DNA of 62,940 bases from Armatimonadota bacterium (GTDB lineage: Bacteria > Armatimonadota > SYMT01): positions 1 through 62,940 of the forward strand of contig JBKBRF010000040.1 in the NCBI GenBank assembly GCA_046292385.1, read 5' to 3'. The notes under the pieces were generated by a model that did no database searches, had not been told where the DNA came from, and saw only the letters and a list, made by a program, of their open reading frames with translations. The translations under genes and the position numbers were made by a program. Position 1 is the stretch's first letter, and each line of letters begins with the position of its first letter. Positions 17,447-35,370 of this stretch are shown one piece after another.

Positions 17447-17737
17447 ATGGCGGAGGGGATGGGGGTGGCGGCGCCGGCGGGAGCTGGTGAGGGGAGAGCG
17501 GGGGCGGTGGGGCGGGCGGGGGGCGAGCGGAACGGGTGGTGCCGGGTCTGCGTGAGCGTCTCGCTGGTGCCGCCGAAGCCGGGGCAGTTGATCTCCGTCT
17601 CCCGGGGGCCGCTTTCGGTGCGGGTGACGGTCTGCCTGCCCCGGCTGGTGATGGCCGGGCTGTTGGTGCTGACGCTGGGGCCGCACCCCTGGTTCGGACA
17701 GGTGGTGCGCTGGGCGCGGGCGATCGGAGGGTGGTGA
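17447..17737 (+). CDS. Hypothetical small protein with C-terminal hydrophobic segment
   Basis: First ORF of the cluster; TGATG coupling to the next ORF. Confidence 0.45.
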   Translation: MAEGMGVAAPAGAGEGRAGAVGRAGGERNGWCRVCVSVSLVPPKPGQLISVSRGPLSVRVTVCLPRLVMAGLLVLTLGPHPWFGQVVRWARAIGGW

Positions 17738-18003
17738 TGGGGATCTGGCGGATCTTTGGCGGACGGATGGTCGAGCTGCTGCGGGGGAACGTGTGGGAGA
17801 TCCTGCGGACGGTGGTGACGCGCGCGGCGGCGGACGAGGTGGAAGAGGGGCTGCGGGACCAGTTCCGGGCGCTGGGACCGGAAGGCCGCGAGGAGCTGGC
17901 GGGGACGCTGGAGCGGATCGCCGCGCTGCTGCGGGCCGACCGGAGCGGGCGCGCGGCCGGCCGCGTGGCGGCGGAGCTGGTGGGGCGGCTGACGCTTCGC
18001 TGA
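17737..18003 (+). CDS. Hypothetical helical protein
   Basis: MGIWRIFGGRMVELL...; GGAGG RBS; coupled start. Confidence 0.6.
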   Translation: MGIWRIFGGRMVELLRGNVWEILRTVVTRAAADEVEEGLRDQFRALGPEGREELAGTLERIAALLRADRSGRAAGRVAAELVGRLTLR

Positions 18004-18065
18004 AAGAGGGACGGAGAGACAGCGGGACGGGGAGAGGCTGGGCTTGAGAGGCCGGCTCCTGGTCC

Positions 18066-18116
18066 CGGGCGGTTGAAACCGCGGCAAAAGCGGCACGAAG
18101 TCCTCCTTCGGGGACT
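18066..18116. repeat. REP-like element, GGGCGGTTGAAACCGCGGC family, copy 1
   Basis: Two short hairpins; same element at 22183 and 41076. Confidence 0.8.
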
Positions 18117-18137
18117 CAGGATGGTGTGGAGGGGTAG

Positions 18138-19028
18138 TTGGGTGAGGCTTCGTCGGTCCGGTTCCGGGTGGGGCATGCGGATCTGGAGCGGCTCTGCGCG
18201 CTGAACGAGTTTCGGCTGCCGGAGCGCGGCGTGGTGTTCGTGGGGGTGCGCGGCGCGCTGCCGGTAGAGGGGACGGCGACCGAGTGGGGGGAGACGCTGG
18301 AGCTGCGGAGCGCGGCGGTGGACCACCTGCATCCCCGCTGCACGGTGCTGCAGTGGAAGCCGGCGGAGCGGCGAGTGGCGGCGTTCGCGGGCTCCACGGT
18401 GCCCCACCGGCGCTACGTGGAGGCGGCGCGGCGGCGGAACGGCCGGGGCGCTAACCAGCTGATGTCGGGCTGGTTCGTGGATTACCGCCGGGGAACGCAC
18501 CGGGCGGGGACGGCGGGGGCGCACCCGGCTTTTCGGCAGACGCTGCCGCGGCCGCTGCGCCGCACCGTGAACGACCACCACTACACGGCGGCGGACCGGG
18601 TGGAGATTGCGTGCGTGGGCGACAACCTGCACGCCGCCTGGTGTGATGGGCTGGACTCCGAGTACTACGCAAGCGCCGGCTGCCAGGTGGTGGTCGGCCG
18701 CCCGCTGAGCGGTCCGTGGCGCCGGTTCCACCAGGAGGCGACGCGGGAGGCACAGGACGTCTACCCTTATCTCCTGATCCCGGGAAGCGAGCTGCGGGAG
18801 CTGGCGGCGGGTGGTCTCGCCGGAGCGGAGCGGGTGCGGTTCGGGAGCCGGGGGCCACGAACACGCCGGGTGCAGGAGGCGCTGCGCAGGCGCGGCTTCT
18901 ACCGTGGGGCGGTGGACGGCGACTTCGGGCCGCAGAGCCTGCGGGCGCTGCTGCAGTTCCAGGAGCCGCTCGACACCGGCGTGTGCGAAGCCAAAACGGC
19001 AGCGGCTCTCGGCGCGGCGTGGCCATGA
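18138..19028 (+). CDS. Peptidoglycan-binding domain protein (putative endolysin)
   Basis: C-terminal PG_binding_1-like GSRG...VQEAL..RGFYRGAVDGDFGPQS..AL..FQ; N-terminal domain with H...SAGCQV motif. Confidence 0.75.
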   Translation: MGEASSVRFRVGHADLERLCALNEFRLPERGVVFVGVRGALPVEGTATEWGETLELRSAAVDHLHPRCTVLQWKPAERRVAAFAGSTVPHRRYVEAARRRNGRGANQLMSGWFVDYRRGTHRAGTAGAHPAFRQTLPRPLRRTVNDHHYTAADRVEIACVGDNLHAAWCDGLDSEYYASAGCQVVVGRPLSGPWRRFHQEATREAQDVYPYLLIPGSELRELAAGGLAGAERVRFGSRGPRTRRVQEALRRRGFYRGAVDGDFGPQSLRALLQFQEPLDTGVCEAKTAAALGAAWP

Positions 19029-19034
19029 GGTGGA

Positions 19035-20540
19035 ATGGCTGAAGCGAAGGGGACCGGGCGCCGGCGCCGGAAGGCGGCCGGTCCGCCCACCTTTCGGGAG
19101 TTCGTACAGGCGGTGTGGCCGCGGTACCGGTGGTACCGCCACTGCGACGCGTTGGCGGCGGTGCTGCAGCGCCTCGCGGACGGCGAGGTCAAGCGGCTGA
19201 TGGTCTTTATGCCGCCGCGCCATGGGAAGAGCGAGACGGTCTCCCGCCTCTTTCCCGCCTACTACCTGCTCCGGTTCCCGGAGCGCTGGGTGGGGCTCTG
19301 CAGCTATGGCGCGGAGCTGGCGCACACGCTTTCCCGGTCCGCGAAGGACTACTACCTCCGGGGCGGCGGCCGGCTGGATCCGGGCGCGGCCGCGGCGCGG
19401 CACTGGGAGACCGGCGCGGGCGGCGGGATGTGGGCCGCCGGCGTAGGCGGACCGATCACCGGCAAGGGCTGGCACCTCGGCGTGATCGACGATCCGGTAA
19501 AGAACGCGGCCGAGGTGGGCTCGCCCCACTTCCGGGAGAAGCAGTGGGAGTGGTACGGCTCCGTCTTCTATACCCGCGAGGAGCCGGTCGGCGAGAGCGG
19601 CGATCCGGACGGAGCGCTGGTGGTGGTGCAGACGCGCTGGCATCCGGACGATCTTTCGGGGCGTCTGCTGGCGCGGGACCGGGACGAGGAGGAGCCGGAG
19701 CGCTGGCACGTGGTCTCGCTGGAAGCGCTGAAGGAAGAGACGCCGCCGGAGGTGCCGCCGCACTGCACGCTGGAGCCGGACTGGCGAGCTCCGGGAGAGG
19801 CACTCTGCCCGGAGCGCCGCCCGCGGGAGAAGCTGGAGCGGGTGCGGCGGGCGCTGGGAAGCTACGCGTGGAACGCGCTCTACCAGCAGCGTCCGCGGCC
19901 GCGCTCCGGCGGCTTCTTCAAGGTCGACCGGCTCCAGGTGGTCGCCGCGGCCCCCGCCGAGGCGGAGCGGGTGCGCTACTGGGACAAGGCCTCGACCGAG
20001 GGCGACGGCGACTACACGGCCGGAGTGCTGCTGGCGAAGGACGGGGACGGGCTCTACTACGTGGAGGACGTGGTCCGCGGCCGGTGGGGTCCGGCCGAGC
20101 GGGACCGGCGGATGCGCCAGGCGGCCGAGCGGGACGCGGCGCGGGCCGGCAGCCGGGTGCGGATCTGGGTGGAGCAGGAGCCGGGTAGCGGCGGCAAGGA
20201 GAGCGCACAGGCGAGCGTGCGGCTACTGGAGGGCTTTCCGTGCCGGACCGAGCGGGCGACCGGCGACAAGCAGAGCCGCGCGGATCCGTTCGCGGCGCAG
20301 GTGGAGGCGGGCCGGGTGCGGCTGGTGGAGGGGGCGTGGAATTCGCCCTACCGGGAGGAGCTGGCGGCGTTTCCGCTGGGGGAGCATGACGACCAGGTGG
20401 ACGCGAGCAGCGGGGCGTTCAACCGGCTGGCTGGGAGGGGGAGGCGCAGAGGGCTTGTGGGATCTGGTAGGGGTTTGGTTTGGGTAGGGGTGCCTTTCGG
20501 TCCCGGGACTCTGCCTTCCGGTGGCTTGCTGTGCTTGTAG
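19035..20540 (+). CDS. Terminase large subunit
   Basis: Walker A MPPRHGKS, GVGGPITGKG, VIDDPVKN, QTRWHPDDL, nuclease WDKAS...DYTAG and HDDQVDA. Confidence 0.95.
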   Translation: MAEAKGTGRRRRKAAGPPTFREFVQAVWPRYRWYRHCDALAAVLQRLADGEVKRLMVFMPPRHGKSETVSRLFPAYYLLRFPERWVGLCSYGAELAHTLSRSAKDYYLRGGGRLDPGAAAARHWETGAGGGMWAAGVGGPITGKGWHLGVIDDPVKNAAEVGSPHFREKQWEWYGSVFYTREEPVGESGDPDGALVVVQTRWHPDDLSGRLLARDRDEEEPERWHVVSLEALKEETPPEVPPHCTLEPDWRAPGEALCPERRPREKLERVRRALGSYAWNALYQQRPRPRSGGFFKVDRLQVVAAAPAEAERVRYWDKASTEGDGDYTAGVLLAKDGDGLYYVEDVVRGRWGPAERDRRMRQAAERDAARAGSRVRIWVEQEPGSGGKESAQASVRLLEGFPCRTERATGDKQSRADPFAAQVEAGRVRLVEGAWNSPYREELAAFPLGEHDDQVDASSGAFNRLAGRGRRRGLVGSGRGLVWVGVPFGPGTLPSGGLLCL

Positions 20541-20612
20541 GTAGAGGTCACCGTTTCGGAGATTCTCCGTGCCGTTGGCTTTCGCTTGCTTGGCGATGAA
20601 GGCTACCAGTTC

Positions 20613-20866
20613 GGGGGTTCCCCCTGCGCCCTTGTCCCTCGGACCAGCCCTCCCGCGACTTGGCCCTCCGCGGCCTTTTCACCCTCCGCTTCGCTCCGTT
20701 AGCAGGCCGCTCCGGGAGCTCACTTCGTCAGGCTCTGCCCGCGCCATTTGCGGGCGTTTGTTTCGGAGTTGGCGTTCACGGGCTGGTCCGAGGGCCTTCG
20801 AGCGACCCTCCCCCTCCGGGGAGGGTCACAGGTGAGCACCGTCGCTCCCGCTCCGGTGCTCTTGGG
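20613..20866. repeat. Structured dispersed repeat, copy 3
   Basis: Helix CCCTCGGACCAGCCC (20636-20650) / GGGCTGGTCCGAGGG (20780-20794). Confidence 0.85.
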
Positions 20867-20895
20867 TTTCTGGCTGCTCAAGTTTTGAGAGGGCT

Positions 20896-22164
20896 ATGGC
20901 TTTGATGAGTGCGGTGATGCTGGATCAGTTTGCGGCGGCGGAGCGGGAGCGGCAGGCTCGGATCGAGCGGGGGTGGCGGCGGTATCACGGGGAGTGGCCG
21001 GATCCGCTGCGGCCGACGCGGTCCGATCCGCGGGGTGAGGACAACATCCGGCTCAACTTTGCGCGGCTCATCGTGGACAAGGGGGCGGGGTTCCTCTTTC
21101 GCGGGGAGCCGCGGCTGGAAGTCGACGGCGACGGGGATGGGGAGGCGGACCGGTGGCTGGCGCGCTGCTGGGAGGCGAACCGGAAGATGACGACGCTGCA
21201 CCGCCTGGCGGTGAACGGCGGCGTTTGCGGTCACGCCTTCCTCCGGGTGCGGCGGCAGCCGGGCGCGGAGTTTCCGCGGGTGGTGGTGCCGGACCCGGCG
21301 CACGTCTCAGTGCGGTGGGAAGCGGACGACTTCGAGGAGGTGACGGCGTATCACCTCCACTGGCACGGGGTCGATCCGAAGACGGCGCGGCCGGTGGCGT
21401 TCCGGCAGGTGCTGGAGCGGGACGGCGACCGCTGGCTGATTACGGACCAGGAGAGCCGCGGGGACGACGCGGCATGGGTGGACCGGGGGCCGCCGGAGGT
21501 GTGGCCCTTTGCGTGGCCGCCGCTCTTCGGCTGCCAGAACCTCCCGTGCCCAAACGAGTGGTGGGGGCTCTCCGACCTGGAAGAGGACCTGCTGCGGATC
21601 AACCAGGCGATCAACTTCGTGGCGAGCAACGTCGCCCGCATCCTGCGGCTCCACGCGCATCCGAAGACGTGGGGAAAGGGCTTCCAGGCGAGCGAGCTGT
21701 CGATCGGGGTGGACGAGACGATCGTGCTGCCCGACCCCTCGAGCGAGCTGCAGAACCTGGAGATGAAGAGCGACCTGGCGAGCAGCCTGGAGCTGTTCCG
21801 GGAACTGCGGGGAACCCTGCACGAGTTGGCGCGCGTGCCGGAAGTGGCGACCGGCAAGGTGGAGGACCTGGGCCAGCTTTCCGGCCTGGCGCTGCAAATC
21901 CTGTACGGTCCGCTGGTGGAGCTGACGGAGACGAAGCGGCTCCTCTACGGCGAGTTGCTGCAGGAGGTGAGCCGGCGGCTGCTGGAGCTGGGCGGCTTCG
22001 GCACGAACCACCGCGTGCGGGTCTACTGGCCGGAGGTGCTCCCGCGGGACCCCCGCGGCGAGGCGGAGACGGCCCGGCTCTATGCGGAGCTGGGGGTGAG
22101 CCGGGAGACGCTGCTGGCGCGGCTCGGCTTCGATCCGGAGGCGGAGGCGCGGAGGTCGGGCTGA
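20896..22164 (+). CDS. Portal protein (SPP1 gp6-like)
   Basis: YHG, NFARLIVD...FLF, WGLSDL, SGLAL, WPEVLPRD motifs; follows TerL. Confidence 0.88.
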   Translation: MALMSAVMLDQFAAAERERQARIERGWRRYHGEWPDPLRPTRSDPRGEDNIRLNFARLIVDKGAGFLFRGEPRLEVDGDGDGEADRWLARCWEANRKMTTLHRLAVNGGVCGHAFLRVRRQPGAEFPRVVVPDPAHVSVRWEADDFEEVTAYHLHWHGVDPKTARPVAFRQVLERDGDRWLITDQESRGDDAAWVDRGPPEVWPFAWPPLFGCQNLPCPNEWWGLSDLEEDLLRINQAINFVASNVARILRLHAHPKTWGKGFQASELSIGVDETIVLPDPSSELQNLEMKSDLASSLELFRELRGTLHELARVPEVATGKVEDLGQLSGLALQILYGPLVELTETKRLLYGELLQEVSRRLLELGGFGTNHRVRVYWPEVLPRDPRGEAETARLYAELGVSRETLLARLGFDPEAEARRSG

Positions 22165-22182
22165 GTGGGAGTGGATCCACAA

Positions 22183-22234
22183 CCGGGCGGTTGAAACCGC
22201 GGCAACAACGGCACGAAGTCTCCCTGCGGAGACT
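22183..22234. repeat. REP-like element, GGGCGGTTGAAACCGCGGC family, copy 2
   Basis: CCGGGCGGTTGAAACCGCGGCAACAACGGCACGAAGTCTCCCTGCGGAGACT. Confidence 0.8.
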
Positions 22235-22252
22235 TCCGGACGAGGAGGCGGG

Positions 22253-22660
22253 ATGGACGAGGAGCAGGGGCAGGCGCAGGAGGGTCACGGCGCTCCCGAG
22301 GGTGAGCGGCGGTTCAGCCAGGCGGAGGTCGATGCGCTGCTGCGGGAGCGGGACCAGGAGCTGGAGGCGGCGCGCTCCGAGCTGGCGGCGCGGGAGCAGG
22401 AGGCGCTGCGGAGCGCGGCAGCGGCACGGCACCGGCTGCCGGCGGAGCTGGCCGGCCGGCTAGTGGGGGCGAGCGAGGCGGAGCTGGAGGCGGACGCGCA
22501 GTCGCTGGCGCGGCTGGTGAGCGCGGGCGGGCAGTCGTCGGCGGCGAACCCGCCGGGCGGACGCAGCAGCGCGCTCTCGCTGGAGGCGGTGCGGAAGATG
22601 AGCCCGGCGGAGATCAACGCGCGCTGGGAGGACGTGCGGGGGGTGCTGGCGGGGCGGTAG
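22253..22660 (+). CDS. Capsid scaffolding protein
   Basis: FSQAEVD motif, coiled coil, LP..LA.RL.G..E.EL.ADA; lies between portal and capsid. Confidence 0.8.
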   Translation: MDEEQGQAQEGHGAPEGERRFSQAEVDALLRERDQELEAARSELAAREQEALRSAAAARHRLPAELAGRLVGASEAELEADAQSLARLVSAGGQSSAANPPGGRSSALSLEAVRKMSPAEINARWEDVRGVLAGR

Positions 22661-22673
22661 CTGGATTTCGAAC

Positions 22674-22990
22674 CTGGATTCACCGCAGAGACGCGGGGAG
22701 CGCGGAGAGAACCGGAACCAGGATCCGAACCGGGCTTACCGCCAAGAACGCCAAGCTCGCCAAGAAGAATGGGCCTGGCTCGCCTCCCGGCACGGTACAG
22801 CGACCCCGGTCCGAACCAGGATTCACCGCAGAGGTCGCTGAGGGCGCAGAGGGGACGCGGAGAGGGGAGGCAGCGGGTTGGGCCTGGTTTGCTTTACGTT
22901 TGCGGTGCAGCGGCCACGGTCCGGACCTTGATTTCACCGCAGAGGTCGCTGAGGGGACGCGGAGAGGGGAACCGGAGGGGGAAGCGGAGA
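22674..22990. repeat. Cluster of short repeats (TTCACCGCAGAG x3; CGCCAAG x3)
   Basis: TTCACCGCAGAG at about 22679, 22822 and 22933 with ACGCGG.GAG tails; CGCCAAGAACGCCAAGCTCGCCAAG at 22740. Confidence 0.7.
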
Positions 22991-23153
22991 GTTCGGGCTT
23001 GGACCGCCTCTCGATTGTGGTCCAGCGGCCCCGGTGTCTCCGCGCTTCCGGGGCCGGGCGGGACGGCTCGCCAGGTGGCGTGACGGGGTTGTGACGGGGT
23101 GATGGGGGACGGGGTCCGGTGCCGGGAGCGGCGCCGGCTGTGAGAGGAGACGG

Positions 23154-24014
23154 ATGGCGCTTACGAATTTCATTCCGGAGGTCTGGTCGGCGCGGCTGCT
23201 GGCCAACCTGCACAAGAACCTGGTGTACGGCCAGGAAGGGGTGATCAACCGCGACTACGAGGGCGAGATCGTGGAAGCGGGCGACACGGTGCGGATCAAC
23301 GCGGTGGGTCCGGTGACGGTCTCCGACTACACGCGCAACAGCGACCATGACACGCCGGAGACGCTGAGCGACGCGGAGACGATCCTGCAGATCACGCAGG
23401 CGAAGATGTTCAACTTCCAGATCGACGACGTGGACCGGGCGCAGCAGAAGCCTTCCGTGATGGACGGGGCGATGCGGGAGGCGGGCTACGCGCTGGCGGA
23501 TACGGCCGACCAGTTCATCGCCGGCAAGTACCTGGAGGCGGCCGCCGCCAACCTGATCGGCAGCACGGCGGCGCCGAAGACCGACCTGGGCACCGGCGGC
23601 CGGGCCTACGAGTACCTCGTCGACCTGAAGGTGAAGCTGGACGAGGCGAACGTGCCGCGGTGGGGCCGCTGGTGCGTGGTGCCGCCGTGGTACGAAGGGC
23701 TGCTGCTGAAGGACGACCGCTTCGTCTCCTACGGCACCGCCGAGAACCGGGAGAACCTGGCCAACGGCGAGGTGGGCCGCGCGGCGGGGTTCCGGCTCCT
23801 GGTCTCCAACAACGTGCCGAACACCACGGGAGCGAAGTTCCGGATCGTGGCGGGGCACCCGCTCGCCTGGAGCTTCGCGGAGCAGATCCGCAAGGTGGAG
23901 GCGTTCCGGCCGGAGCGGCGGTTCGCGGACGCGGTGAAGGGGCTGCACCTGTACGGCGTGAAGGTGGTGCGGCCGGTGGGGCTGGCGGTGTTGACGGCGG
24001 ATCAGCCGGCCTAA
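23154..24014 (+). CDS. Major capsid protein
   Basis: FIPEVWS, NRDYEGEI...GDTVRI, FQIDDVD, FADAVKGLHLYGVKVVRP. Confidence 0.92.
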   Translation: MALTNFIPEVWSARLLANLHKNLVYGQEGVINRDYEGEIVEAGDTVRINAVGPVTVSDYTRNSDHDTPETLSDAETILQITQAKMFNFQIDDVDRAQQKPSVMDGAMREAGYALADTADQFIAGKYLEAAAANLIGSTAAPKTDLGTGGRAYEYLVDLKVKLDEANVPRWGRWCVVPPWYEGLLLKDDRFVSYGTAENRENLANGEVGRAAGFRLLVSNNVPNTTGAKFRIVAGHPLAWSFAEQIRKVEAFRPERRFADAVKGLHLYGVKVVRPVGLAVLTADQPA

Positions 24015-24096
24015 GTCTTCGGTCTGCGAGGGGTTGAGCCGGGTGGATTCGCACCCGCCCGGCCCAACCCCATCTGTCCGGAGCAGACTTCATCCC

Positions 24097-24370
24097 GAGG
24101 GACCGCCCCGAGCCCTAGTCTCTCGTCGCAGCCCTCCCGCGTCAGAGGCCCTCCGCGGCCCTTTCACGCTCCGGCTCCGCCTCCGCTAGCGGGCTGCTCC
24201 GGGTGTTCACCCCGGCATGCTCTTCCCGCGCCAGGAGGCTCTTACCGATTTCGATGACGTTGTTCACGGGCTGCGGCGAGAGCCGTCGAGCTGCCACCCC
24301 GCGACCCGCAAGCGGGTACCCCGGGTGGCCACAGGGTGTCCGCCTACGCTTCGCTCCGGCGGACCTGGGT
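24097..24370. repeat. Structured dispersed repeat, copy 4
   Basis: Helix CTCTCGTCGCAGCCC (24120-24134) / GGGCTGCGGCGAGAG (24268-24282). Confidence 0.85.
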
Positions 24371-24430
24371 TGCGTTGCCCCGGATGCGAGTTTCTGAAGT
24401 TTAGGTTGTAGCGACTAAAGAGGAGTTCCT

Positions 24431-24823
24431 ATGGCAAATGCCAGTGCGATTGCGGTGACGGATCTGGTGGCGAACGGGGCTGCGGCGCGGCCGGTGGGGG
24501 ACGTGCTCGATACGGGGACGGGAACGGTGACACTTTCGGCGCCGGTGGCCGGGGAGAGTGACCGGGTGGTGCTGGAGGTGACGAACACGCAGGGCGCGGC
24601 GGCGCTGCAGGTGGCGGTGAAGGCGGGCGCGAACCCGCCGGCGTTCCGGGCCGGGCTGGGGGACTACGTGCCCTCGGCGCTGGCCGCGGGCGCCACCGCG
24701 CTGTACGGCCCGTTCGAGAGCGCCCGCTTCGTCGGAGCCGGCGGCGCGCTACAGGTCGCGTTCACGCCCGCCTCCGGGACGATCGGCGCGACAATCCGCT
24801 GCTACCGGCTCCCGAAGGCCTGA
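24431..24823 (+). CDS. Virion structural protein (possible capsid decoration)
   Basis: AGGAG RBS; beta-rich; GPFESARF motif; directly after the capsid gene. Confidence 0.7.
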   Translation: MANASAIAVTDLVANGAAARPVGDVLDTGTGTVTLSAPVAGESDRVVLEVTNTQGAAALQVAVKAGANPPAFRAGLGDYVPSALAAGATALYGPFESARFVGAGGALQVAFTPASGTIGATIRCYRLPKA

Positions 24824-24825
24824 CG

Positions 24826-25362
24826 GTGGCGCGGAGCACGATGGCTCCCCTGCTTTCGCGCCTGCGCGGGCTCATCGGAGACCCGGCGGGCGCGGGGCAG
24901 GCATGGAGCGATGACGAGCTGCAGGATGTGGCCGACGGCTGCCGGGAGGAGGCGCGGTACCTCCCGCTTGCGCCGGAGGAGACGCGGGCTGCCGGCGGCG
25001 GGGCAGCGTATCTCTCGTTTTCGGCGCCCACGGGCGACTGGGAAGAGGGACCGGAGCTGTATGACGCAACATATCAGGTGCTCATACCGGCGATCTCCGA
25101 CTGCCGCGCCGGTCGCTGGCGCTTCGAGACGGAGCCGGCACGGCCGGTGACGCTGACGGGCCGCACTTTCGACCTCGCGAGGGCGGCGGCGGAGGTGCTG
25201 GAGGCGTGGGCGGCGCGGGTGAAGCGGGAGTACGACTTCGCCAGCTCCGACCAGCGGTTCGAGAGGGGCCAGCAGGCGCGGGCGATGCAGGAGCTGGCGG
25301 CACTCTATCGCCGCCGGGCACGGCCGCGGACGGCGGTCCAGACGAGGAGCGACGTAGGATGA
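24826..25362 (+). CDS. Putative head-tail adaptor
   Basis: LR.LIGD....WSDDEL, AAAEVLEAWA, YDF....Q.F.R; position in the operon. Confidence 0.7.
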   Translation: MARSTMAPLLSRLRGLIGDPAGAGQAWSDDELQDVADGCREEARYLPLAPEETRAAGGGAAYLSFSAPTGDWEEGPELYDATYQVLIPAISDCRAGRWRFETEPARPVTLTGRTFDLARAAAEVLEAWAARVKREYDFASSDQRFERGQQARAMQELAALYRRRARPRTAVQTRSDVG

Positions 25363-26749: not shown

Positions 26750-26751
26750 AG

Positions 26752-27114: not shown

Positions 27115-27235
27115 TCGGGAACTGAGTAGGGGTCAGAGGTCAGGTGCCAGGGATCATTTCCGAACTCCGATCTGAAGGAGCTCGCTACACACGTGCCTTC
27201 TAGTATGAGTGATGGAATATCGAGTATGAGAGAGT

Positions 27236-27673
27236 ATGGCGAGTGAGCTTCAGGCGGTGGACCGGGCGGTGACGTCAGTGCTGACGGCGGACGCAGACGT
27301 GAGCGAGGCCGTTGGGAACCGGATCTACGCGGGCGCGGCTCCCCAGGGGGCGGTGCAGCCGTACGTGGTTTTCCAGCGTGTGGGCGGGGCCGACCGGCCC
27401 GCGGTCGGCGGCGGCGAGACCGTCTGCTCCCGGACGGTGTACGCGGTGGAGGTGGTCGGCGCCGCGGGTGGCTTCGCGGAGCTGGACCCGGCAGCGGGGG
27501 CGGTGGACGCCTGCCTCTCGACCCTCGAGGAGAGCGTGTCGCTGGGGAGCGAGACCTACCGGGTGCGGGGAGCGGGGCGGGTGGATCCGGTGCGGCGGGT
27601 GGAGACGGTAGAGGGGAGGCGGTACTTCCACGTGGGAGGCCGGTACCGGATCTTTGCGCAGCGAGTCGGGTGA
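27236..27673 (+). CDS. Tail terminator (DUF3168-like)
   Basis: VGNRIY...APQGA..PYVVF motif. Confidence 0.8.
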   Translation: MASELQAVDRAVTSVLTADADVSEAVGNRIYAGAAPQGAVQPYVVFQRVGGADRPAVGGGETVCSRTVYAVEVVGAAGGFAELDPAAGAVDACLSTLEESVSLGSETYRVRGAGRVDPVRRVETVEGRRYFHVGGRYRIFAQRVG

Positions 27674-27747
27674 GGGGGTGTGCTTGACGTTTCGAGCAGT
27701 TGTCGAAGGCCTGCACTACCTTCCTGTCGAGGCGCAGCGTTGGCTCC

Positions 27748-28010
27748 GCGGGTCCGACCCCGCGCCCTTGTCGCCCGCTTCAGCCCTCCCGCGACTCTGG
27801 CCCTTCCACAGCCCTTTCACGCTGCGCCTGCGGCTCCGCTAGCGGGCTGGTCCGGGCGTGCTCACCGGCGCGCTCTTGCCGCGCCACTGCGCTGCATCAC
27901 GGCAGAGGTTGGGTTCACGGGCTGAAGCGGGCGCCTTCGAGCGACCACCCCTGAAGCTCCAGGGGTGGTCACAGGGGGCACCCTCCGGCTTCGCCTTCGG
28001 GCGCCATGGG
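27748..28010. repeat. Structured dispersed repeat, copy 5
   Basis: Helix CGCCCGCTTCAGCCC (27772-27786) / GGGCTGAAGCGGGCG (27919-27933). Confidence 0.85.
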
Positions 28011-28076
28011 TTTCTGGCGCTGTCGGGGCAGATGTCTGAGCGCGATGGTTGGAACGCATTTGTGAAGGAGTGAGGG

Positions 28077-29048
28077 ATGGCGGAGCGGGCTTCGGTTCTG
28101 GAGCGGAGTCAGATCGGGGTGGAGGCGGTGCCGGGCACGGCGGTGGCGTGCGGGCACCGGTTGATGCTGACGCGGATCGAGCCGCGGCCGGTGGTGGCGG
28201 TGCGGCACCGGCGGGGGATCGGGAGCAAGTACGGGGTGGCGGCGGAGGCGGGGCGGGAGCACACGGAGGCGCGGCTGGAGGGGGAGGCGGGCTACAACGA
28301 GCTGGTCTACCTGCTGGCGGCGCATCTCTGCACGCCGGTCTTCGGCGGGTCGACGGCGACCTTCGTGCCGGATCCGTTCGGGCCGGACACGGTCCGGACG
28401 CTGACGGTGCAGGCGGGCACCTCCGCCCGGGCCGAGCAGTTCGACTACGGGATCGTGCGGACGCTGCAGCTTCGCTTCACCGGCACCGAAGTGGCGGTGA
28501 CCGGGGAGATGTTCGGCCGGGAGCTGGCGGAGGGGGCCGCGCTGACGCCCAACGCGGCGCCGGTCGGCACGGTGCTGATCGGGCCCGGCGACTGGAAGGT
28601 GCGGGTGGGCACGGCGATGAATGGCGGCGACCTGGCCGACCTGACGCGCGTGCTGGAGTGCGAGCTGCTCTCCCGGAACAAGTGGAAGCCCGGCTTCTTC
28701 GCCGGCGGCTCCGGCGAGGAGAGCTTCACCCGCGAGGTGGAGCTGGCGCCGGAGACGCGGGTGCGCCTGGCGCTGGAGCACGACGCGGTCTCCGCGGGCT
28801 TTATGGCGACGCTGCGCTCGGCGGAGAGCCGGCTGCTTCGGATCGAGGCGAACGGGCCGGAGGTGTCGCCCGGGACCGCCTACCAGCTCCGCATCGAGAT
28901 GCCGTTCCGCTTCGTGGAGTGTGACCGCGGGGACCGGGACGAGTTGTTCGGGAGCGTCTATACGCTGGAGCCGACTTACGACGCGGCGTTCAACGGGACG
29001 GGTGGGGTGATGAAGGTTTCGGTGACTTCGGGAGTGACCGGGTTTTAG
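28077..29048 (+). CDS. Major tail (tube) protein
   Basis: QIGVE..PGT N-terminus, TLTVQ.G; lies between terminator and chaperone. Confidence 0.75.
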   Translation: MAERASVLERSQIGVEAVPGTAVACGHRLMLTRIEPRPVVAVRHRRGIGSKYGVAAEAGREHTEARLEGEAGYNELVYLLAAHLCTPVFGGSTATFVPDPFGPDTVRTLTVQAGTSARAEQFDYGIVRTLQLRFTGTEVAVTGEMFGRELAEGAALTPNAAPVGTVLIGPGDWKVRVGTAMNGGDLADLTRVLECELLSRNKWKPGFFAGGSGEESFTREVELAPETRVRLALEHDAVSAGFMATLRSAESRLLRIEANGPEVSPGTAYQLRIEMPFRFVECDRGDRDELFGSVYTLEPTYDAAFNGTGGVMKVSVTSGVTGF

Positions 29049-29140
29049 ACCGTCTCTATGGGTGCTCGCGCTCTTCGAGAGCGGGTTCTCTTCGGGGTGC
29101 TTCCGTCTGCTTCGGTTGGTCTGTACCGCACTTCGGGGAC

Positions 29141-29415
29141 GGGATCTCACCGGGGTTCCACCCCGCGCCCTCACCGCCGGGAGCGGCCCTCCCGCGTGTT
29201 TGGCCCTCCCGCAGTCCTTTCACGCCCTGCGGGCTAGCGGACTGCTCCGGGCGTGCTCTCCGCTTTGCTGCGCTCCGCGTCCGCGGGCTGCGGCTGCTTC
29301 GGGGCTGCGATTCACGGGCCGCTCCCGGCGGCTCAAGCGACGGCCCCTCGCCAGGGACCGTCACAAAGGGAACCCTCCGGCGCTGCTTGCGCAGCGCCTC
29401 CGGGCTCCGTGGGGG
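29141..29415. repeat. Structured dispersed repeat, copy 6 (subtype A)
   Basis: Helix CCGCCGGGAGCGGCCC (29174-29189) / GGGCCGCTCCCGGCGG (29316-29331), compensatory relative to copy 1. Confidence 0.85.
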
Positions 29416-29498
29416 CTGTGTTCATTGGACACTGCGGGTGGCCGCTTTCGCTCGCGCTGCTGAGGTGGTGCGGGCTTTTCTGTGTTCTGGAGGCGTGG

Positions 29499-29819
29499 AT
29501 GCCGGAGCTGGGGCTGCTGCAGGTGGAGCGGGCGGAGGTGCGGGTGGAGTTTGGGGAGCAGGCGCTCTGCGTCGGCTACCGGCCGGGGGCGGTGACGGTG
29601 GCGCTGCTCGACTCGCTGGAGAGCGGGATGCGGGTGGAGGAGGCGGTGGCGGCGCTGCTCTGCGATTGGGACCTCTCGGATGGCGCGACTCCGGTGCCGG
29701 TGCAGGCGGAGGCGCTGCGGCGGGTGCCGCTGCCGATCCTGCGCCGCGTGCTGGAGTCGGTGCTGGAGGACGCGCTCCCAAAGCCGCCGCGTGCCGCCGC
29801 CTCCGCCAGTTCCTGGTAA
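29499..29819 (+). CDS. Tail assembly chaperone (gpG-like)
   Basis: GGAGG RBS; LL.DWDL.D...P.P motif; slippery C-CCA-AAG near the 3' end. Confidence 0.75.
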   Translation: MPELGLLQVERAEVRVEFGEQALCVGYRPGAVTVALLDSLESGMRVEEAVAALLCDWDLSDGATPVPVQAEALRRVPLPILRRVLESVLEDALPKPPRAAASASSW

Positions 29820-30010
29820 GCGGCGGCACGCGGGGTGAGTGCCCGGCGTGGTACCGACTGCTCCGGGCGGCGCGGTACCTGGGAGCGGCTCCGTGGGAGC
29901 TGCTGGGCCGGGAGGCGTTCTGGCTGCACGCGGCGCTGGAGGCGGAGCATGCGGAGCGCTGGGCGGAGTACGAGCGGGAGCGGCGATCGGCCGCGGTGGG
30001 AGGGAGATAG
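29777..30010 (+). CDS. Tail assembly chaperone -1 frameshift extension (gpT-like)
   Basis: The -1 frame is open from CCCAAAG (29777-29783): PKAAAC...PAWYRLLRAARYLGAAPWEL, stopping directly before the tape measure start. Confidence 0.75.
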   Translation, partial: PKAAACRRLRQFLVSGGTRGECPAWYRLLRAARYLGAAPWELLGREAFWLHAALEAEHAERWAEYERERRSAAVGGR

Positions 30011-30694
30011 GTGCCGACGATCGCGACACTGCAGGCGACCCTCTCCGTGGAGGAGCAGGAGAGCGCGCGCCTGGACCGGGTGGAGCAGGTGCTGGAGCGG
30101 TTCGTCTCCCGCGCCGAGACGGTGAGCCGGCCCGCGCTGGACCGGCTGGCGCAAGGCAGCCCGGCCGGGGAGGGCGGCGAGCGGCTGGAGCGCCTGCTGG
30201 CGGCGGCGCGGGTGAGGCTGGCGCGGGCGGAGCTTTCCGCGGACCCGCTGCTCTCGCCCGTCGACCGTCGGCGCATGCTGGTGCCGGCGCTGCTGGAACA
30301 GTACCGGTCGCTGATGAGCGCCTCGCGGGGAGAGGATGAGCTGGGCCGGCTGCGCCGCCTGACCGAGGCGGCCGGGGTGAAGCGGAGCGTCTTCGAGGCG
30401 CTGGGAGCAGGCCGCGGCGGCTTCGCCCGGGTCGTGGGCGGCGGGTCGGTGGGGCTGTTCGACGGTCCCGGGCTGCGGTCCGCGGCGGCGGCGCTGGCCC
30501 GGATCGAGCGGAATGCCGCCGCTTCGGCCGCTGCGCTCCCCGGCCACCGCGGCGAAGCACGCGTCACGGTGCCGGTGACGGTGATCGGCCAGCCGGACTT
30601 CAACGATCCGCAGACGCGCCGGCGGATCCACGCGGAGATCGACCGCCGCCTGGACGAGCTGGCGCGGCAGGGTTACTCCCGGGCGAGGAGCTGA
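30011..30694 (+). CDS. Very short tape measure protein
   Basis: Canonical position after the G/GT pair; MPTIATLQATLS N-terminus; Ala/Arg/Leu helical; C-terminal VTVPVTV. Confidence 0.65.
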   Translation: MPTIATLQATLSVEEQESARLDRVEQVLERFVSRAETVSRPALDRLAQGSPAGEGGERLERLLAAARVRLARAELSADPLLSPVDRRRMLVPALLEQYRSLMSASRGEDELGRLRRLTEAAGVKRSVFEALGAGRGGFARVVGGGSVGLFDGPGLRSAAAALARIERNAAASAAALPGHRGEARVTVPVTVIGQPDFNDPQTRRRIHAEIDRRLDELARQGYSRARS

Positions 30695-31731
30695 TGGCGA
30701 CCTACCTTTCTCTCCCCGCGGACCTCCCCCCGGGCGGCACGTGGGTGGCCGGCGACTTCCATCGTCTGCGGGACGGCGCGCTCGTGACGGCGGCGCTGGC
30801 AGCGGACGGCGATCGCTGCCGCCTGCTGGTCTGCCGCTGGAGTGACGCGGAGCCGCCGGAGCCCGGCGAGGTGCAGACGGTGGAGCCGGCGGGAGTCTAC
30901 GGGGTGTCGCTGGGGAGCCCCGGCGGAGAGGTCCTGGACCTGTTCTACACGCTCCACGGCACCCGGATCTACCGCCGGGTGAGCCGTGACGGCGGTCGCA
31001 CGTGGGGGGAGCCCGCGGAGGTGCCGTGGACCCCATTTCCGTTCGTGCCGACCTACGGACCGCCGCAGCCGGGGTATCCGGCGGTCGGCACCGGCACGAC
31101 GGTCAGTTTCGCCCACGGCTATACGGCGGAAGGGCGGATCGTGCTCCTCTTTCCCCAGGAATACTTCTACCTGGTGCAGTACGTGGCTCTGTGCCTGGTG
31201 GTGGGAGAGGCGGATGAGGAAGGCGCCTGGAGTTGGAGTGAGACGTGGTTTCCAAACGCGAGCGACGGGACGACGCTGGCGCGGTGCGCCAAGCTGCAGC
31301 GGTCGCGCTGGGGCGGCATGCACGCGCTCGGCAGCAACTTCCGGCTGGACGACCTGCGCCTGGACGCGCCGCCGACGGTAGTTCGGGAGGTCGACCGCGC
31401 CAGCGATTCTCCGTCGGCGCGGGAGTGGATCGACGAGCGGCTCGGCCTGCGCGTGGCACTCAGCTCCTTCACGGTGAGCAGTACCGATCGACGGCTCACC
31501 TGGCGCTGCTATAGCCTGGAGCCGGGCGATCCGCCGATGTGGCGGGCCTCCGGGGCGACCGGCGGCTCCACAGCTCCGCTGGCGCTCGATCCGCGAGGCT
31601 TCCCGATGAAGGTGACGCAGCGGGTGGACGGAGTCTGGGAAGGGCTGGTGGTGGGACCGGGCCAGCGCCTGCGATTCGTGCGGAGCCGCCGCGTCTCCCG
31701 GACCGGCGAAGCAGCGTGGAGCATGGAGTGA
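30694..31731 (+). CDS. Putative tail tip/baseplate protein with Asp-box
   Basis: SRDGGRTW Asp-box; coupled to both neighbours. Confidence 0.6.
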   Translation: MATYLSLPADLPPGGTWVAGDFHRLRDGALVTAALAADGDRCRLLVCRWSDAEPPEPGEVQTVEPAGVYGVSLGSPGGEVLDLFYTLHGTRIYRRVSRDGGRTWGEPAEVPWTPFPFVPTYGPPQPGYPAVGTGTTVSFAHGYTAEGRIVLLFPQEYFYLVQYVALCLVVGEADEEGAWSWSETWFPNASDGTTLARCAKLQRSRWGGMHALGSNFRLDDLRLDAPPTVVREVDRASDSPSAREWIDERLGLRVALSSFTVSSTDRRLTWRCYSLEPGDPPMWRASGATGGSTAPLALDPRGFPMKVTQRVDGVWEGLVVGPGQRLRFVRSRRVSRTGEAAWSME

Positions 31732-33830
31732 TGGCAACGGGCTCGCGGCGGACGCCGCTGCTCTCGATCCGGCTCTACGACGTGGCGGAGGGCGACCCGC
31801 GCGTGGTGACGAGCGGCTTCGCCTGGTGCGACATCCTGGCGGAGAGCTGCCGCTACGGCTCCTCCGACTTCGACACGGCGGGGCGTCCGCGGCTGGAGTA
31901 CCTGCCGGAGATCGGCCTCACCTGCCGGGCGCGGCTGGCGCTGCAGGACACGCGCGCAAGCCAATACCGCGTTGCGGGCGGCGCCTGGGAAGAGCGCCGG
32001 CCGGCTCTCGGCTCGCCACGTGTGTACCGGCTGGTTCAATACGACGCCTCGCCGGGAGTGGAGTGGAGCGCCACCTCGCTGTTCGATCTTCCGGAGGATC
32101 CCGATTGTGCTGTGGAGCTGCTGCTCCCCCACCCCCCTCCGGATTGGGACGCGGCGGCGCTGCCGCCTTACGTGCAGGTGGAGTTGGGCGGCGGGGCCTG
32201 GGCGATCCGGTATGACGAGGAAGGCGGGTTCCTGCTGCGGCGGGCGGGGAGTGCCTGGCAGCTCGCCGCCGAGCTCCCGCGGCCGGCGCGGTCCGGCGGC
32301 TTCGACCCGTCGCCGGAGACGGTCGTGCTCTTCGTCCGCTGCCTGCGGGGGCAGGTCGGCGTCTCCGTGGACGGCGGCCGACGCTACACCTGGTCCGGCT
32401 ATCCGGACGGCGTGCCGGTCTCGATCCCGGCAGGCAGCGTGGCGGTGCGCGGCCGCGGGGGCGTCTCGCTCTTCGGGCTGCATCAGCTCGCCTACTCGTC
32501 CGGGGTCTACACCAGTCCGGAGCGGAACACGCTCACCGCGCGTGCCGCGGTCGTGCCGGTGCTGGAAGCGCGCTCCGACGCCCCGGGGGCGACGACGATC
32601 GGCCTCGGGGATCTCTCGACCCCGGCCGCGGGGATCGCCCGGTATGCGGTGACACTGACGCCGGAGAGCCGCGCCGCGGTGCCGTTCCCCGTGCAGCGCG
32701 CGCCGGTGGTCTATGCGGTGCAGCTCCGCTACGCCCCGGAAGTGCAGCCGGGAACCGGCGCCTACACCACCCCGTGGGACGAGCGCCTGCGCTGGTGCGA
32801 GGTGGACGAGCCGCTGGAGCTGCACGCCGGGAGCGCCGCGTGGCAGATCCGCCTGCCGCCGGGCGAGAGCTTTTCCGGCGAGTACCGGCGGCGGAAGGTC
32901 CAGATCCGCATGGGCTGGCGCGAGGACGGCGAGGAGCAGTGGTGGACCGTCTTTACCGGCTACATCGACCGGGTCCGGATCGAGGCGGACGGCTACGGCG
33001 CGAGCCGCGTCACCTTCCGAGCGGAGAACGCGACCGCCCGCTTCAAGCACAGCGAGTGGACGATGCTGGAGGCGCGCCCGCTGGGCGGGCTAACGCTGAA
33101 CGCGGCGGCCGACGCGGTGCTGGCCTCGGAGGGGCTGAACGCCTCCTACCGCCTGTGGGACGGCCTGGGCGATCGCTTCGCGCTGCCGCCGGGCTCCCCG
33201 GAAGAGCCCGCGGAGCTGCCGCGACCGGGCGAGCGGAAGTGGGAGACGCTGGAGCGGATCTTTGGCTACGCACACCTGGAGCCGTACGCGCGGCGCGACG
33301 GAACGATCTCCAGCGTGCCCCGGAGCTACTTCGGACCGGTGACGCGCAGCTACCGGGTCACCGACCCCGCCGCGGCGCAGGAGCTGATCGACTCGCTCTC
33401 GGTGGAGCTCGACTACAACCGCTGGGCGACGGCGGTGCTGGTGACCGGCCGCGGCGAGCGGGGCGGCGCGATGGTGGGGTGGGCTCGCGACGGCGCGGCG
33501 GAAGGCGGGGAAGCGTCCGCGCACTTCTGCCCGTGGCGGGAGGTGCTGCAGGAAGAGATCCCCGGCTCCACTTCCCCCGGCCTCGTCCTCTCCCGCGCGC
33601 AGGCGCTGGCGTACGACCTCTTCGGAGTGCGCAGCGAGACGGAGGTCGCGCTGCCGCTCGATCCGGGAGTGGAGCGGCGCGACGCGGTGGCGCTCTACGG
33701 CGCGGGAGCGGCCGGCTTCGCGGACGGCGCCGAGCTGGTGGTGCTGACGCTGCGGCACCGGGTCGATCTCGACCCGGAGTCCGGGCACGGCCCGGAGACG
33801 ATTGCCGGGCTGCGGCGGCTTGCTCCGTAG
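31731..33830 (+). CDS. Putative tail hub/baseplate protein
   Basis: VQIRMGW...VFTGYIDRV, KWETLERI, DPGVERRDAV motifs typical of hub proteins. Confidence 0.65.
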   Translation: MATGSRRTPLLSIRLYDVAEGDPRVVTSGFAWCDILAESCRYGSSDFDTAGRPRLEYLPEIGLTCRARLALQDTRASQYRVAGGAWEERRPALGSPRVYRLVQYDASPGVEWSATSLFDLPEDPDCAVELLLPHPPPDWDAAALPPYVQVELGGGAWAIRYDEEGGFLLRRAGSAWQLAAELPRPARSGGFDPSPETVVLFVRCLRGQVGVSVDGGRRYTWSGYPDGVPVSIPAGSVAVRGRGGVSLFGLHQLAYSSGVYTSPERNTLTARAAVVPVLEARSDAPGATTIGLGDLSTPAAGIARYAVTLTPESRAAVPFPVQRAPVVYAVQLRYAPEVQPGTGAYTTPWDERLRWCEVDEPLELHAGSAAWQIRLPPGESFSGEYRRRKVQIRMGWREDGEEQWWTVFTGYIDRVRIEADGYGASRVTFRAENATARFKHSEWTMLEARPLGGLTLNAAADAVLASEGLNASYRLWDGLGDRFALPPGSPEEPAELPRPGERKWETLERIFGYAHLEPYARRDGTISSVPRSYFGPVTRSYRVTDPAAAQELIDSLSVELDYNRWATAVLVTGRGERGGAMVGWARDGAAEGGEASAHFCPWREVLQEEIPGSTSPGLVLSRAQALAYDLFGVRSETEVALPLDPGVERRDAVALYGAGAAGFADGAELVVLTLRHRVDLDPESGHGPETIAGLRRLAP

Positions 33831-33851
33831 CCGCGGGAAGGGAGGCGAGAC

Positions 33852-34058
33852 GTGGAGAACCCGTTCGGGAGTATACAGCGGGAAGCGGTCCGCCGCGCCG
33901 GGCTGGTCGACACCTCCGCCGCCCGGGTGACCGCCGCGGGACGGCCGGAGGCGATCCAGGCGGCGGGCGGGACGGACAGCGGCGGAGGGTGGCGCGGCTA
34001 CGGGCTGCTCGGGCTGACGCGCCTGGGCGAAGGGCTGCGGGTGCGGCAGACGGGGTAG
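33852..34058 (+). CDS. Small hypothetical tail protein
   Basis: GGAGG RBS; LGLTRLG motif. Confidence 0.55.
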   Translation: MENPFGSIQREAVRRAGLVDTSAARVTAAGRPEAIQAAGGTDSGGGWRGYGLLGLTRLGEGLRVRQTG

Positions 34059-34287
34059 GAGCGGGACCGATACGAACCCTTCTCACCACGGTTGCCGATG
34101 CCGCTCCGAGCACCCGCGAGGGACGGGTGAGAGCTACTTCTCACGCGGCCTCACGCCCGGCCCCTCTCCTGCGAGGAGAGGGGAGCTATCTGTGTCAGGC
34201 CAGCCTGCTCGGGGGGATAGGCCGCGCCGGAGTGCAGAGCTATCGCCCTCTTACGTAGGCTAATCTCGGAGCAGCATGGAGATCTAG

Positions 34288-34974
34288 ATGGGCACCCCGG
34301 TGTTGGGCTTGAAGAACGACTACGCCGACCTCGACGTGGTGAGCGCCGAGGAGCTGAACCGGCGTGCGGATGCGCTGGAGGCGCGGCTTGCCAGCAGGCT
34401 GGCGAAGAGCGTGGGCGGAGGGGCGGACGTGGCCCTCTCTGCCGCGGAGGCCGAGGCGGAGGTGCTGGAGCTGACCGGCACGCTGACCGCGAACATCGCC
34501 GTGATCGTACCCGCCTGGACCGGGAAGCGGTGGCTGGTCCGGAACGGCACCACCGGCGCCTTTACGCTGACGGTGCGGACTGCCGCGGGCGCGGGAGTGA
34601 CGGTGGGCCAGGGACGGCGGGCGCTCGTCTACGGAGACGGCGCCGACGTGCTGCGGGCCACCCTCGATACCGGGAGCGACGGCAGCATGGTCGTAGGCGG
34701 GGGCGCTCCGATCGCGCAGCACCTCTCTGCCGCGACCACCTGGGACCCGCCGAGCCTGGCGGACGGAGCAGTCGCGGCAACCGTCGTCTCGGTCCCGGGC
34801 GCGGTGCCCGGAAGTATTGCTGGGGCGGGACTCAGCAGCCTGGGGGGCGCCGACGTGCTGCTCTCCGCGCATGTCTCGGCGGCCGACCAGGTGCGGGTGG
34901 TGCTGCAGAACCGGACGGGGTCGGCGCTGGACCTCGGGTCAGGGACGCTGCGGGTGGGGGTTTGGGTCTATTAG
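34288..34974 (+). CDS. Putative tail fibre / receptor-binding protein
   Basis: LTGTLTANI.VIVP...W.VRNGTTGAFTLTV; WDPPSLADG...VPGA..G; DLGSGTLRV. Confidence 0.75.
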   Translation: MGTPVLGLKNDYADLDVVSAEELNRRADALEARLASRLAKSVGGGADVALSAAEAEAEVLELTGTLTANIAVIVPAWTGKRWLVRNGTTGAFTLTVRTAAGAGVTVGQGRRALVYGDGADVLRATLDTGSDGSMVVGGGAPIAQHLSAATTWDPPSLADGAVAATVVSVPGAVPGSIAGAGLSSLGGADVLLSAHVSAADQVRVVLQNRTGSALDLGSGTLRVGVWVY

Positions 34975-35057
34975 ACTGGTTTGCGTGGCCGCTCGTCGGG
35001 CGTGCGTGACTTCCGTCGCTGCAATGCGGTTCTCTATCGACCGTTTTTCGCTGGCGA

Positions 35058-35316: not shown

Positions 35317-35370
35317 ATACTGTTGGCGAAATCGGGAAGCTGCTCCGGTGCCCCGCTGGCGCGGGGCGCG

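Follow-up and report, generated by a model that had tools for sequence, protein, structure and literature searches.

The stretch of DNA considered here, hereafter the window, comprises positions 1 to 62,940 of a contig from an Armatimonadota bacterium (JBKBRF010000040.1, assembly GCA_046292385.1). This 62.9-kb window is about 70% G+C, and its genes were called by third-position G+C content and frame plots. Within it lies a phage-derived element that spans about 17.2 to 38.9 kb (about 21.7 kb), longer than the interval 17447-34974 in which an earlier reading of the same DNA, the original prediction, had recognized a domesticated virion operon resembling a gene transfer agent (GTA). By gene content the element is a stranded prophage in the chromosome of this soil bacterium. 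The same genome carries a sibling, a collinear prophage with a tyrosine integrase (contig C12, about 83.3-111.9 kb, loci L046-L048), with which the genes of the window are compared throughout.

Every gene in 17447-34974 lies on the plus strand, and together they make up a co-directional virion set. The first gene of the element (17447-17737, third-position G+C 0.93) encodes a 96-residue protein with one hydrophobic segment that is holin-like by position only; its C-terminal part resembles the product of C12:87289-87540 by eye only, without a BLAST match. The second (17737-18003) has a coding signal and encodes an 88-residue helical protein of no family, 51% identical by BLAST to C12:87486-87800. 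Next comes an endolysin-like protein (18138-19028) with a C-terminal peptidoglycan-binding domain (PF01471, 8e-7; endolysin PHROGs over residues 230-276), 49% identical to C12:88084-88920. In a sequence search of the PDB this binding domain alone was matched, and the N-terminal domain was without a match. The large terminase subunit, TerL, follows at 19035-20540 (phrog_38, 3.9e-93; PF17289, 2e-16) and is 73% identical to the C12 TerL over 454 residues. The head genes begin with an SPP1-type portal (20896-22164), which matches PF05133 (7e-16) and phrog_64 over residues 17-417 and is 40-41% identical to Herpetosiphon loci over residues 2-417. A head scaffolding protein (22253-22660; phrog_1793 and phrog_233, 1e-8) and the major capsid protein (23154-24014; phrog_267, 8e-80; PF25209, 3e-17) complete the head proper.

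Downstream of the capsid gene, a conserved phage protein occupies the head-tail connector position (24431-24823; phrog_24894, 3e-21). It is followed by five tightly packed small open reading frames (ORFs) of no family in neck or decoration positions (24826-26749), called from the frame plot and ORFs, one of which, 24826-25362, encodes a protein 39-40% identical to one in loci L019 and L142. Head completion (26689-27114; PF05521, 5.5e-8) and gp17-like tail completion (27236-27673; PF11367, 1e-12) proteins are 51% and 44% identical to their C12 counterparts. The 323-residue tail tube protein (28077-29048) is 41% identical, over its full length, to a C12 protein of the same size, which itself matches PF18906 (Phage_tube_2) at 4e-6, right at the cut-off. 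A tail assembly chaperone pair, G and G-T (29499-30010, G being 29499-29819), has a slippery C CCA AAG at 29777-29783 and a -1 frame open to 30010, the usual layout for such chaperones. Directly after G-T lies a miniature tape measure of 227 residues (30011-30694), whose C-terminal end is homologous to that of the C12 tape measure. The remaining tail genes encode a 345-residue tail-tip protein (30694-31731; 35% identical to C12), a 700-residue hub (31728-33830; 56%), a 68-residue protein collinear with a 68-residue ORF in C12 (33852-34058), and a tail fiber (34288-34974; phrog_12796, 2.7e-14) that is 60% identical to its C12 homolog over all 228 residues. Structure matches in the Atlas offer leads for two of these: the tail-tip protein is predicted to be a BNR/sialidase-like beta-propeller, resembling sialidase-family models and a "phage tail protein" cluster at a template modeling score of about 0.7, and the hub may correspond to baseplate hub models of the gpP/gp44/gpD type.

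In all, family assignments were reached for 11 virion or lysis-like genes, and TerL, portal, capsid, tube, completion proteins, hub, and fiber align end to end with homologs of equal length. The cluster is thus phage derived and encodes a complete head and tail, and the matches to Pfam and PHROG families bear out the apparently complete head-neck-tail set with intact ORFs that had been proposed. The ribosome binding sites and translational coupling noted earlier are also there: Shine-Dalgarno-like motifs stand ahead of most starts, and several stops and starts overlap by 1, 4, or 8 nucleotides. The G+C content had been called host-like, which holds roughly (0.720 for 17447-34974 against 0.689 for the genome), though near the host value is not equal to it.

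Where does the element end? On the left, the dispersed repeat A1 and a host dioxygenase gene lie upstream of 17447. On the right, three minus-strand genes (35697-38857) adjoin the fiber gene. They encode a predicted lipoprotein of 308 residues with a Cys-rich C-terminal tail and no family (35697-36623); a 391-residue protein of no family with an N-terminal domain of about 120 residues and a long Ala/Pro/Lys-rich tail (36688-37863); and, as the last phage gene at this border, an Erf/Rad52-family single-strand annealing recombinase (37928-38857; phrog_1097, 1e-29; PF04098, 1.8e-11). Host-type genes restart only at 39114, which places the end of the element near 38.9 kb. On this side the earlier reading does not survive, for it had the cluster bordered by ordinary host genes, with no gene for replication inside it or nearby. 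The host-type gene itself (39114-39637, plus strand) encodes a secreted protein of about 174 residues with repeated Cys-rich motifs that look YHS/TRASH-like by eye, and a strong hairpin and the repeat copy A5 follow it. The third-position G+C filter had missed this gene because its codon positions 1 and 2 are AT-richer.

Just as telling is what the element lacks. Six-frame searches of the whole genome gave 18 matches to tyrosine recombinases and 2 to serine recombinases, none of them in this contig, and exact matches between the two border regions reach 8 nucleotides at most, no better than in shuffled sequence; the claims that the cluster has neither an integrase nor an att repeat are upheld. 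The copies of repeat A at the borders (starting at 16953 and 39772) were considered as att sites and rejected, since the family numbers about 130 copies across the genome and has three others within the cluster. What about a small terminase? There is none in the gap of 6 nucleotides between the peptidoglycan-binding gene and TerL, the structure of the small family-less ORFs not having been assessed. In the C12 sibling that position holds a phage metallopeptidase (PF18894) and a DUF2280 protein, and the search of the whole genome found no other DUF2280 gene, so that the original prediction of no identifiable small terminase holds as well. DUF2280 proteins are often annotated as small terminases.

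An intact temperate siphovirus would be expected to carry an integrase with flanking att repeats, a repressor for immunity, a replication module, and a small terminase, a set that was not found here. What was found is a block of phage genes in the chromosome without the functions for autonomous propagation, that is, a defective (cryptic) prophage. The contig holds no tyrosine or serine recombinase for integration and excision, yet an Erf/Rad52 recombinase and two family-less genes on the early strand remain attached. In contigs C45 and C63, Erf paralogs have integrases within about 1.5 kb of them, and the window copy accordingly resembles what is left of an early arm that has lost its integrase end.

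The C12 sibling is the most informative relative of the element. The two have a common gene order: a small membrane protein, a helical protein, a peptidoglycan-binding protein, TerL, head, neck, tube, chaperones, tape measure, beta-propeller protein, hub, 68-residue ORF, and fiber. Identity is 73% for TerL and 35-60% among the tail proteins other than the tape measure, which are also of matching length; the tape measure has 992 residues in C12. The sibling differs further in having an integrase, the metallopeptidase and DUF2280 genes, and a head module unrelated to that of the window (a portal-MuF fusion, a protease, and an HK97-type capsid), and in holding none of the dispersed repeats A, B, and C that are described below. 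Further prophage-like regions with integrases are found in C10, C45, and C63.

Might the stranded element simply depend on its sibling? Silent or incomplete by itself, it could be mobilized or completed upon induction of C12, borrowing the terminase-position proteins and a late-gene activator. The close likeness of the TerL proteins, the homologous and collinear tail modules, and the location of the genome's sole DUF2280 gene directly upstream of the C12 TerL are all consistent with such an arrangement. We nevertheless consider it improbable, since the head modules are unrelated (SPP1 portal and scaffold against portal-MuF fusion, protease, and HK97-type capsid), the C12 integrase ORF is short (224 residues), so that C12 may itself be defective, no shared regulatory or pac-like sequence has come to light (no search aimed at one having been made), and the DUF2280 protein is only a putative small terminase.

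The tape measure deserves particular attention. Residues 61-224 of the 227 in the window protein are 46% identical to residues 833-992 of the C12 tape measure. A HMMER search of 1.84 billion representative sequences returned 30 relatives, 27 of which are 660-1270 residues long and match at their C-terminal ends; among the three shorter sequences is one clear fragment. Only the query itself came back from a word-indexed search for short relatives, and a search for longer relatives by means other than HMMER, weak evidence in any case and superseded by the HMMER result, returned none. Because nearly all relatives are long and match C-terminally, the miniature tape measure is a rare, derived form that kept the C-terminal end. 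In size it falls in the class of RcGTA g11, in keeping with the short tape measures that the original prediction ascribed to GTAs: g11 is described as having about 216 residues, with a tail of 49 nm (PMC7296036). Scaled from that example, any particle made from the cluster would have a tail of roughly 35-50 nm.

How might such an element have come about? In the explanation we put at about even confidence, it is a stranded prophage for which no host function has been demonstrated. A temperate long-tailed phage of the host lineage would have left a remnant of about 21.7 kb in the chromosome. What remains is a lysis-like cassette, TerL, a complete-looking head-neck-tail line, and three genes left from an early operon, Erf among them. 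Lost, in this view, are the integrase and att sites, the genes for immunity and replication, and the terminase-position genes found upstream of TerL in the sibling, and an internal loss would have cut the tape measure from about 900-1000 residues to 227. We infer that the element can neither excise, integrate, nor replicate, nor recognize its own DNA, this last because no small terminase candidate was found. If expressed, it would presumably yield capsids with the short tail estimated above that, lacking a small terminase, package nothing or package DNA without sequence preference. The TerL of the window belongs to the Terminase_6 families, which are headful packagers and would suit such nonspecific packaging.

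Several observations weigh against a plain, decaying remnant, among them those on host repeats. Two families of about 220-250 nucleotides, A and B, which form one superfamily, and a 60-nucleotide family, C, together make up 223 merged loci in the 7.04-Mb genome. Eleven copies lie between 13.6 and 41.1 kb of the window, all in plus orientation, and eight of them fall within 16953-35302, where 0.58 would be expected (Poisson P = 2e-7). These eight are A1 (16953-17192) at the left border, C1 (18065-18124), A2 (20608-20823), C2 (22183-22242), A3 (24070-24311), A4 (27722-27962), B2 (29125-29340), and B3 (35040-35302). Three more repeat families occupy other spacers: one with internal tandem units D15 and D16 (22661-23153, plus; 186 BLAST matches in 38 contigs), one at 34059-34287 (61 matches genome-wide), and one directly after B3 (35303-35696, plus; 137 matches in 64 contigs). 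Nearly every spacer of the operon thus holds a host dispersed repeat, about 9% of the late operon consists of such repeats, and all of them are intergenic, with no ORF broken. The integrase-bearing prophage regions of the same genome in C12, C45, C63, and C10 hold 0, 0, 0, and 1 copies of A, B, or C, respectively.

Are these insertions recent? The superfamily A/B has 130 copies of at least 150 nucleotides genome-wide, with a median nearest-neighbor identity of 86%, and the copies in the cluster are 77-88% identical to their nearest copies. These identities would point to insertions of some age, and so to constraint on the ORFs between them, though nearest-neighbor identity is no clock and short-read assemblies may miss very recent copies. 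A long residence under some constraint is thus suggested, since the ORFs align end to end and the old-looking repeats are confined to spacers.

The repeats are of some interest in their own right. Eight aligned A/B copies are predicted to adopt a common multihelix fold, with a long-range helix, inner hairpins, and conserved sequence blocks, and across these eight copies 18 of the 46 predicted pairs have undergone compensatory change, in which both sides are altered and pairing is kept. Relatives almost lack them, with only partial, weak matches in 4 of the 20 other genomes searched. The copies outside the cluster lie at 13642-13857 and 39772-39979 (A5), and the third copy of C in the window lies at 41076-41135, that family having 67-74 BLAST matches genome-wide. 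Contig C8 holds another repeat-dense region, among other genes, in which many A/B copies form inverted pairs between genes. At Rfam gathering thresholds the only match in the window was a tRNA, and the repeats were unmatched. A promoter scan returned one promoter-like site, on the minus strand, and terminator-like sites numbered 12, against 6.1 +/- 2.5 in shuffles. Elsewhere in the window, a stretch of about 2 kb (5612-7602) has a lower G+C content (0.667) and no ORF that passes the coding filter.

Further points on the same side of the scale come from sequence variants. When 31-mers were sampled from 19035-26320, public runs from five studies were found to contain them, at shares of 0.99, 0.51, 0.40, 0.33, and lower, and no RNA run was among those listed. 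Four runs were aligned at 90% likeness, and 32 of 1350 pieces and 40 of 393 differences are listed. Parts of the cluster along its length are covered by short contigs of runs X2, X3, and X5 that show 0-12 differences for every 260-930 nucleotides. The dioxygenase gene and repeat A1 are joined in one X2 contig, and in X3 one contig links the capsid gene to A3 and another links A3 to the next gene. Among the 40 listed differences, 28 fall in cluster genes, 18 synonymous and 10 nonsynonymous, and three of the listed indels are in-frame events of 3 nucleotides. Eighteen of the 28 come from a single X2 contig of about 90% identity over the G-T extension, 12 of them synonymous in the -1 frame; the remaining ten comprise 6 synonymous and 4 nonsynonymous changes. 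For the host dioxygenase gene the same listing gives 5 synonymous and 1 nonsynonymous. This pattern, thin as it is, suggests constraint. Single-base indels also occur in low-depth contigs: X2 and X5 contigs have an extra G after 20436, just past the conserved part of TerL, and one X3 contig is one base short at 25326. Such indels could reflect frameshifts among strains or errors in one or the other assembly. Broken genes would be expected in a remnant undergoing plain decay, and none is seen; taken together, the intact ORFs, repeats, and variants are more easily reconciled with an element that is maintained, and possibly domesticated, than with neutral decay.

A complete, functional temperate phage would also have intact virion genes, and its genes for integration, immunity, and replication could have diverged beyond recognition. 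The family-less ORFs (17447-18003, 35697-37863, and the five at 24826-26749) leave some room for such genes. Even so, we hold this to be very unlikely: only about 21.7 kb separates the host genes, there is no recombinase of a common class and no border repeat, and the share of host repeat in the late operon would be unusual for a packaged genome. Nor does any listed joint in the sampled runs have a long flank on both sides. Joints that skip parts of the cluster were considered as empty sites and rejected as noise from other organisms or repeats, their sides being 21-32 nucleotides at 90% likeness.

A more serious alternative is that the stranded prophage has been taken over by its host. In this young, lineage-specific domestication the cluster would be kept as a GTA-like or PBSX-like particle factory: an induced fraction of cells would lyse and release short-tailed capsids, into which a terminase without its recognition subunit takes random host DNA. 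Much of what has been described agrees with this. The integrase, att sites, and terminase-position genes are gone, every virion ORF that can be aligned is intact, and the site of programmed frameshifting persists. The tape measure comes close in size to RcGTA g11 (about 216 residues; PMC7296036), host repeats sit in spacers only while the integrase-bearing prophages hold almost none, the listed variants are more often synonymous than nonsynonymous (18 against 10), and near-identical pieces, including the bridges at A1 and A3, occur in runs of three further studies.

Other evidence pulls the opposite way. Known GTAs are reported to keep a small terminase that lacks a DNA-binding domain and activates TerL (PMC11841831), and none was found between the peptidoglycan-binding gene and TerL. 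The miniature tape measure is nearly unique among its mostly long relatives, the remaining Erf gene suggests that trimming is incomplete, no regulator is known, and most of the cluster variants (18 of 28) stem from the single divergent contig, among a listed 40 of 393. Above all, domestication should leave a trace in related genomes. The relatives tested reach family depth (six genomes of the same family and one of the same order, with no second genome of the genus), and at that depth the cluster was found in none of them.

The details of this distribution are instructive. Counting the window's own genome, TerL homologs occur in 9 of 41 related genomes, and the closest lies in a genome of another family (55% identity, against 51% for the best genome of the same family). 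At the TerL loci of four relatives, TerL was the sole match among 35 window proteins queried. The hub protein has homologs in 22 of 301 genomes of the phylum and in 0 of 6 of the same family and 0 of 1 of the same order. In G005, the best-assembled family member, the left-flank gene has an ortholog (66%) at a distance of 6 kb from those of the two right-flank genes (78% and 61%), and neither a cluster gene nor any other window protein queried has a match there. Because the orientation of the flank orthologs differs, this locus is a rearranged neighborhood, not a clean empty site. The original prediction had looked to a syntenic cluster across related genomes, and on this point it fails at the family depth covered: the hub was not found in the close relatives, the TerL loci are unrelated, and the G005 neighborhood is without a cluster gene.

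The head tells a similar story. Relatives of the capsid were sought in metagenome contigs, in IMG/VR, and in genomes at one per species. The best of them anywhere are 64% identical and belong to three Herpetosiphon species, an Anaerolineales metagenome-assembled genome, and viral contigs. Capsid relatives lie in prophages or viral contigs of several phyla, the viral contigs being about 30-47 kb long; the head may, we infer, hold more than 21.7 kb, unlike that of RcGTA, which is another point against domestication. At any locus, at most 5 of the 25 cluster proteins are shared. TerL and tail resemble the C12 sibling and the head resembles Herpetosiphon-type prophages, a mosaic of modules. The distribution is one of phage-type mosaicism and not of vertical descent. 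Three Herpetosiphon loci (L017, L018, and L032, one in each of the three species) have a common portal-scaffold-capsid block with near-identical spacing and 64% capsid identity to the window, and this block could be a conserved resident element there.

Where does this leave the claim that the cluster is a set of particle genes maintained by the host and not an ordinary prophage? One half of it stands, in that the cluster is phage derived, appears unable to integrate, excise, or recognize its own DNA, and has intact ORFs; inheritance and mosaicism speak against the other half, that it is a GTA. We give domestication by the host a lower probability than a stranded prophage without such a role. 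Slightly more doubtful still is its fullest form, an independent and very young domestication in which a short-tailed particle packages DNA without sequence preference from an operon long resident with repeats in its spacers. In this form a temperate siphovirus would have lost its integrase, immunity, replication, and terminase-recognition genes and three quarters of its tape measure.

The case illustrates which checks separate a GTA from a defective prophage and where those checks run out. The signature of a GTA in gene content is present (no integrase, no small terminase, a short tape measure), and the signature in inheritance is absent. If the cluster is maintained, it would represent an early stage of domestication and help to show which losses come first. 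Host structured repeats within a phage operon whose ORFs are unbroken also offer a useful and cheap marker of residence time. In the literature, no paper among the matches listed for both "gene transfer agent" and "Armatimonadetes" carried either term in its title or abstract.

How does the stranded prophage compare with known systems? The PBSX-type prophages of Bacillus subtilis are chromosomally fixed and defective, and they still make particles and package host DNA. The tail of PBSX is contractile, and the prophage is conserved across its species group; nothing comparable was seen for the window cluster. GTAs resemble defective prophages and are described as hard to separate from them by sequence (PMC11841831). 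RcGTA and the window have in common a phage-derived head-tail cluster of about 15-17 kb without an integrase and a tape measure of similar length (about 216 and 227 residues), which would predict a short, noncontractile tail. RcGTA has an HK97-type capsid protein of 398 residues, a head module of the protease type, and a small, oblate head with room for less than 4.5 kb (PMC7296036), and it is inherited vertically across the Rhodobacteraceae with its small terminase kept (PMC11841831). The window cluster has a scaffold-based head, no small terminase that was found, no presence in the relatives sampled, and a remaining Erf gene. As the original prediction recognized, its SPP1 portal (PF05133), scaffold, and phrog_267 capsid, with no protease, depart from the homologous HK97-type portal, protease, and capsid of the RcGTA arrangement. 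FpGTA, of Faecalibacterium prausnitzii, offers a second parallel as an independent, nonalphaproteobacterial cluster with TerL, portal, scaffold, and capsid (PMC12946183). It differs in having a candidate small terminase, in being podovirus-like, and in resting on particle and DNA experiments (PMC12946183), none of which holds for the window cluster.

A final comparison comes from within the phylum itself. Distant homologs of the hub led to a different head-tail-lysis cluster in the families f14, f20, f24, and f33 (loci L223-L232, at G045:C7, G291:C38, G249:C93, G166:C1, G081:C20, G184:C35, and G121:C23). It encodes a terminase, portal, protease, capsid, tube, a protein of about 1050 residues in the tape measure position, hub, holin, and amidase. 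Like the window cluster it is of siphovirus type, and its hub is 23-32% identical to that of the window; it has no ortholog in the genome of the window (G000). This cluster is syntenic, present in one copy per genome, and 63-96% identical in its capsid across the four families, and it was found in 8 of 10 genomes of f24, 5 of 8 of f20, 2 of 2 of f14, and several of f33. With the inheritance pattern that the window cluster lacks, it would make a far better GTA-like candidate. The element in the window, in turn, is best described as a stranded prophage with intact virion genes, one that the host may, with lower probability, keep as a GTA-like particle.

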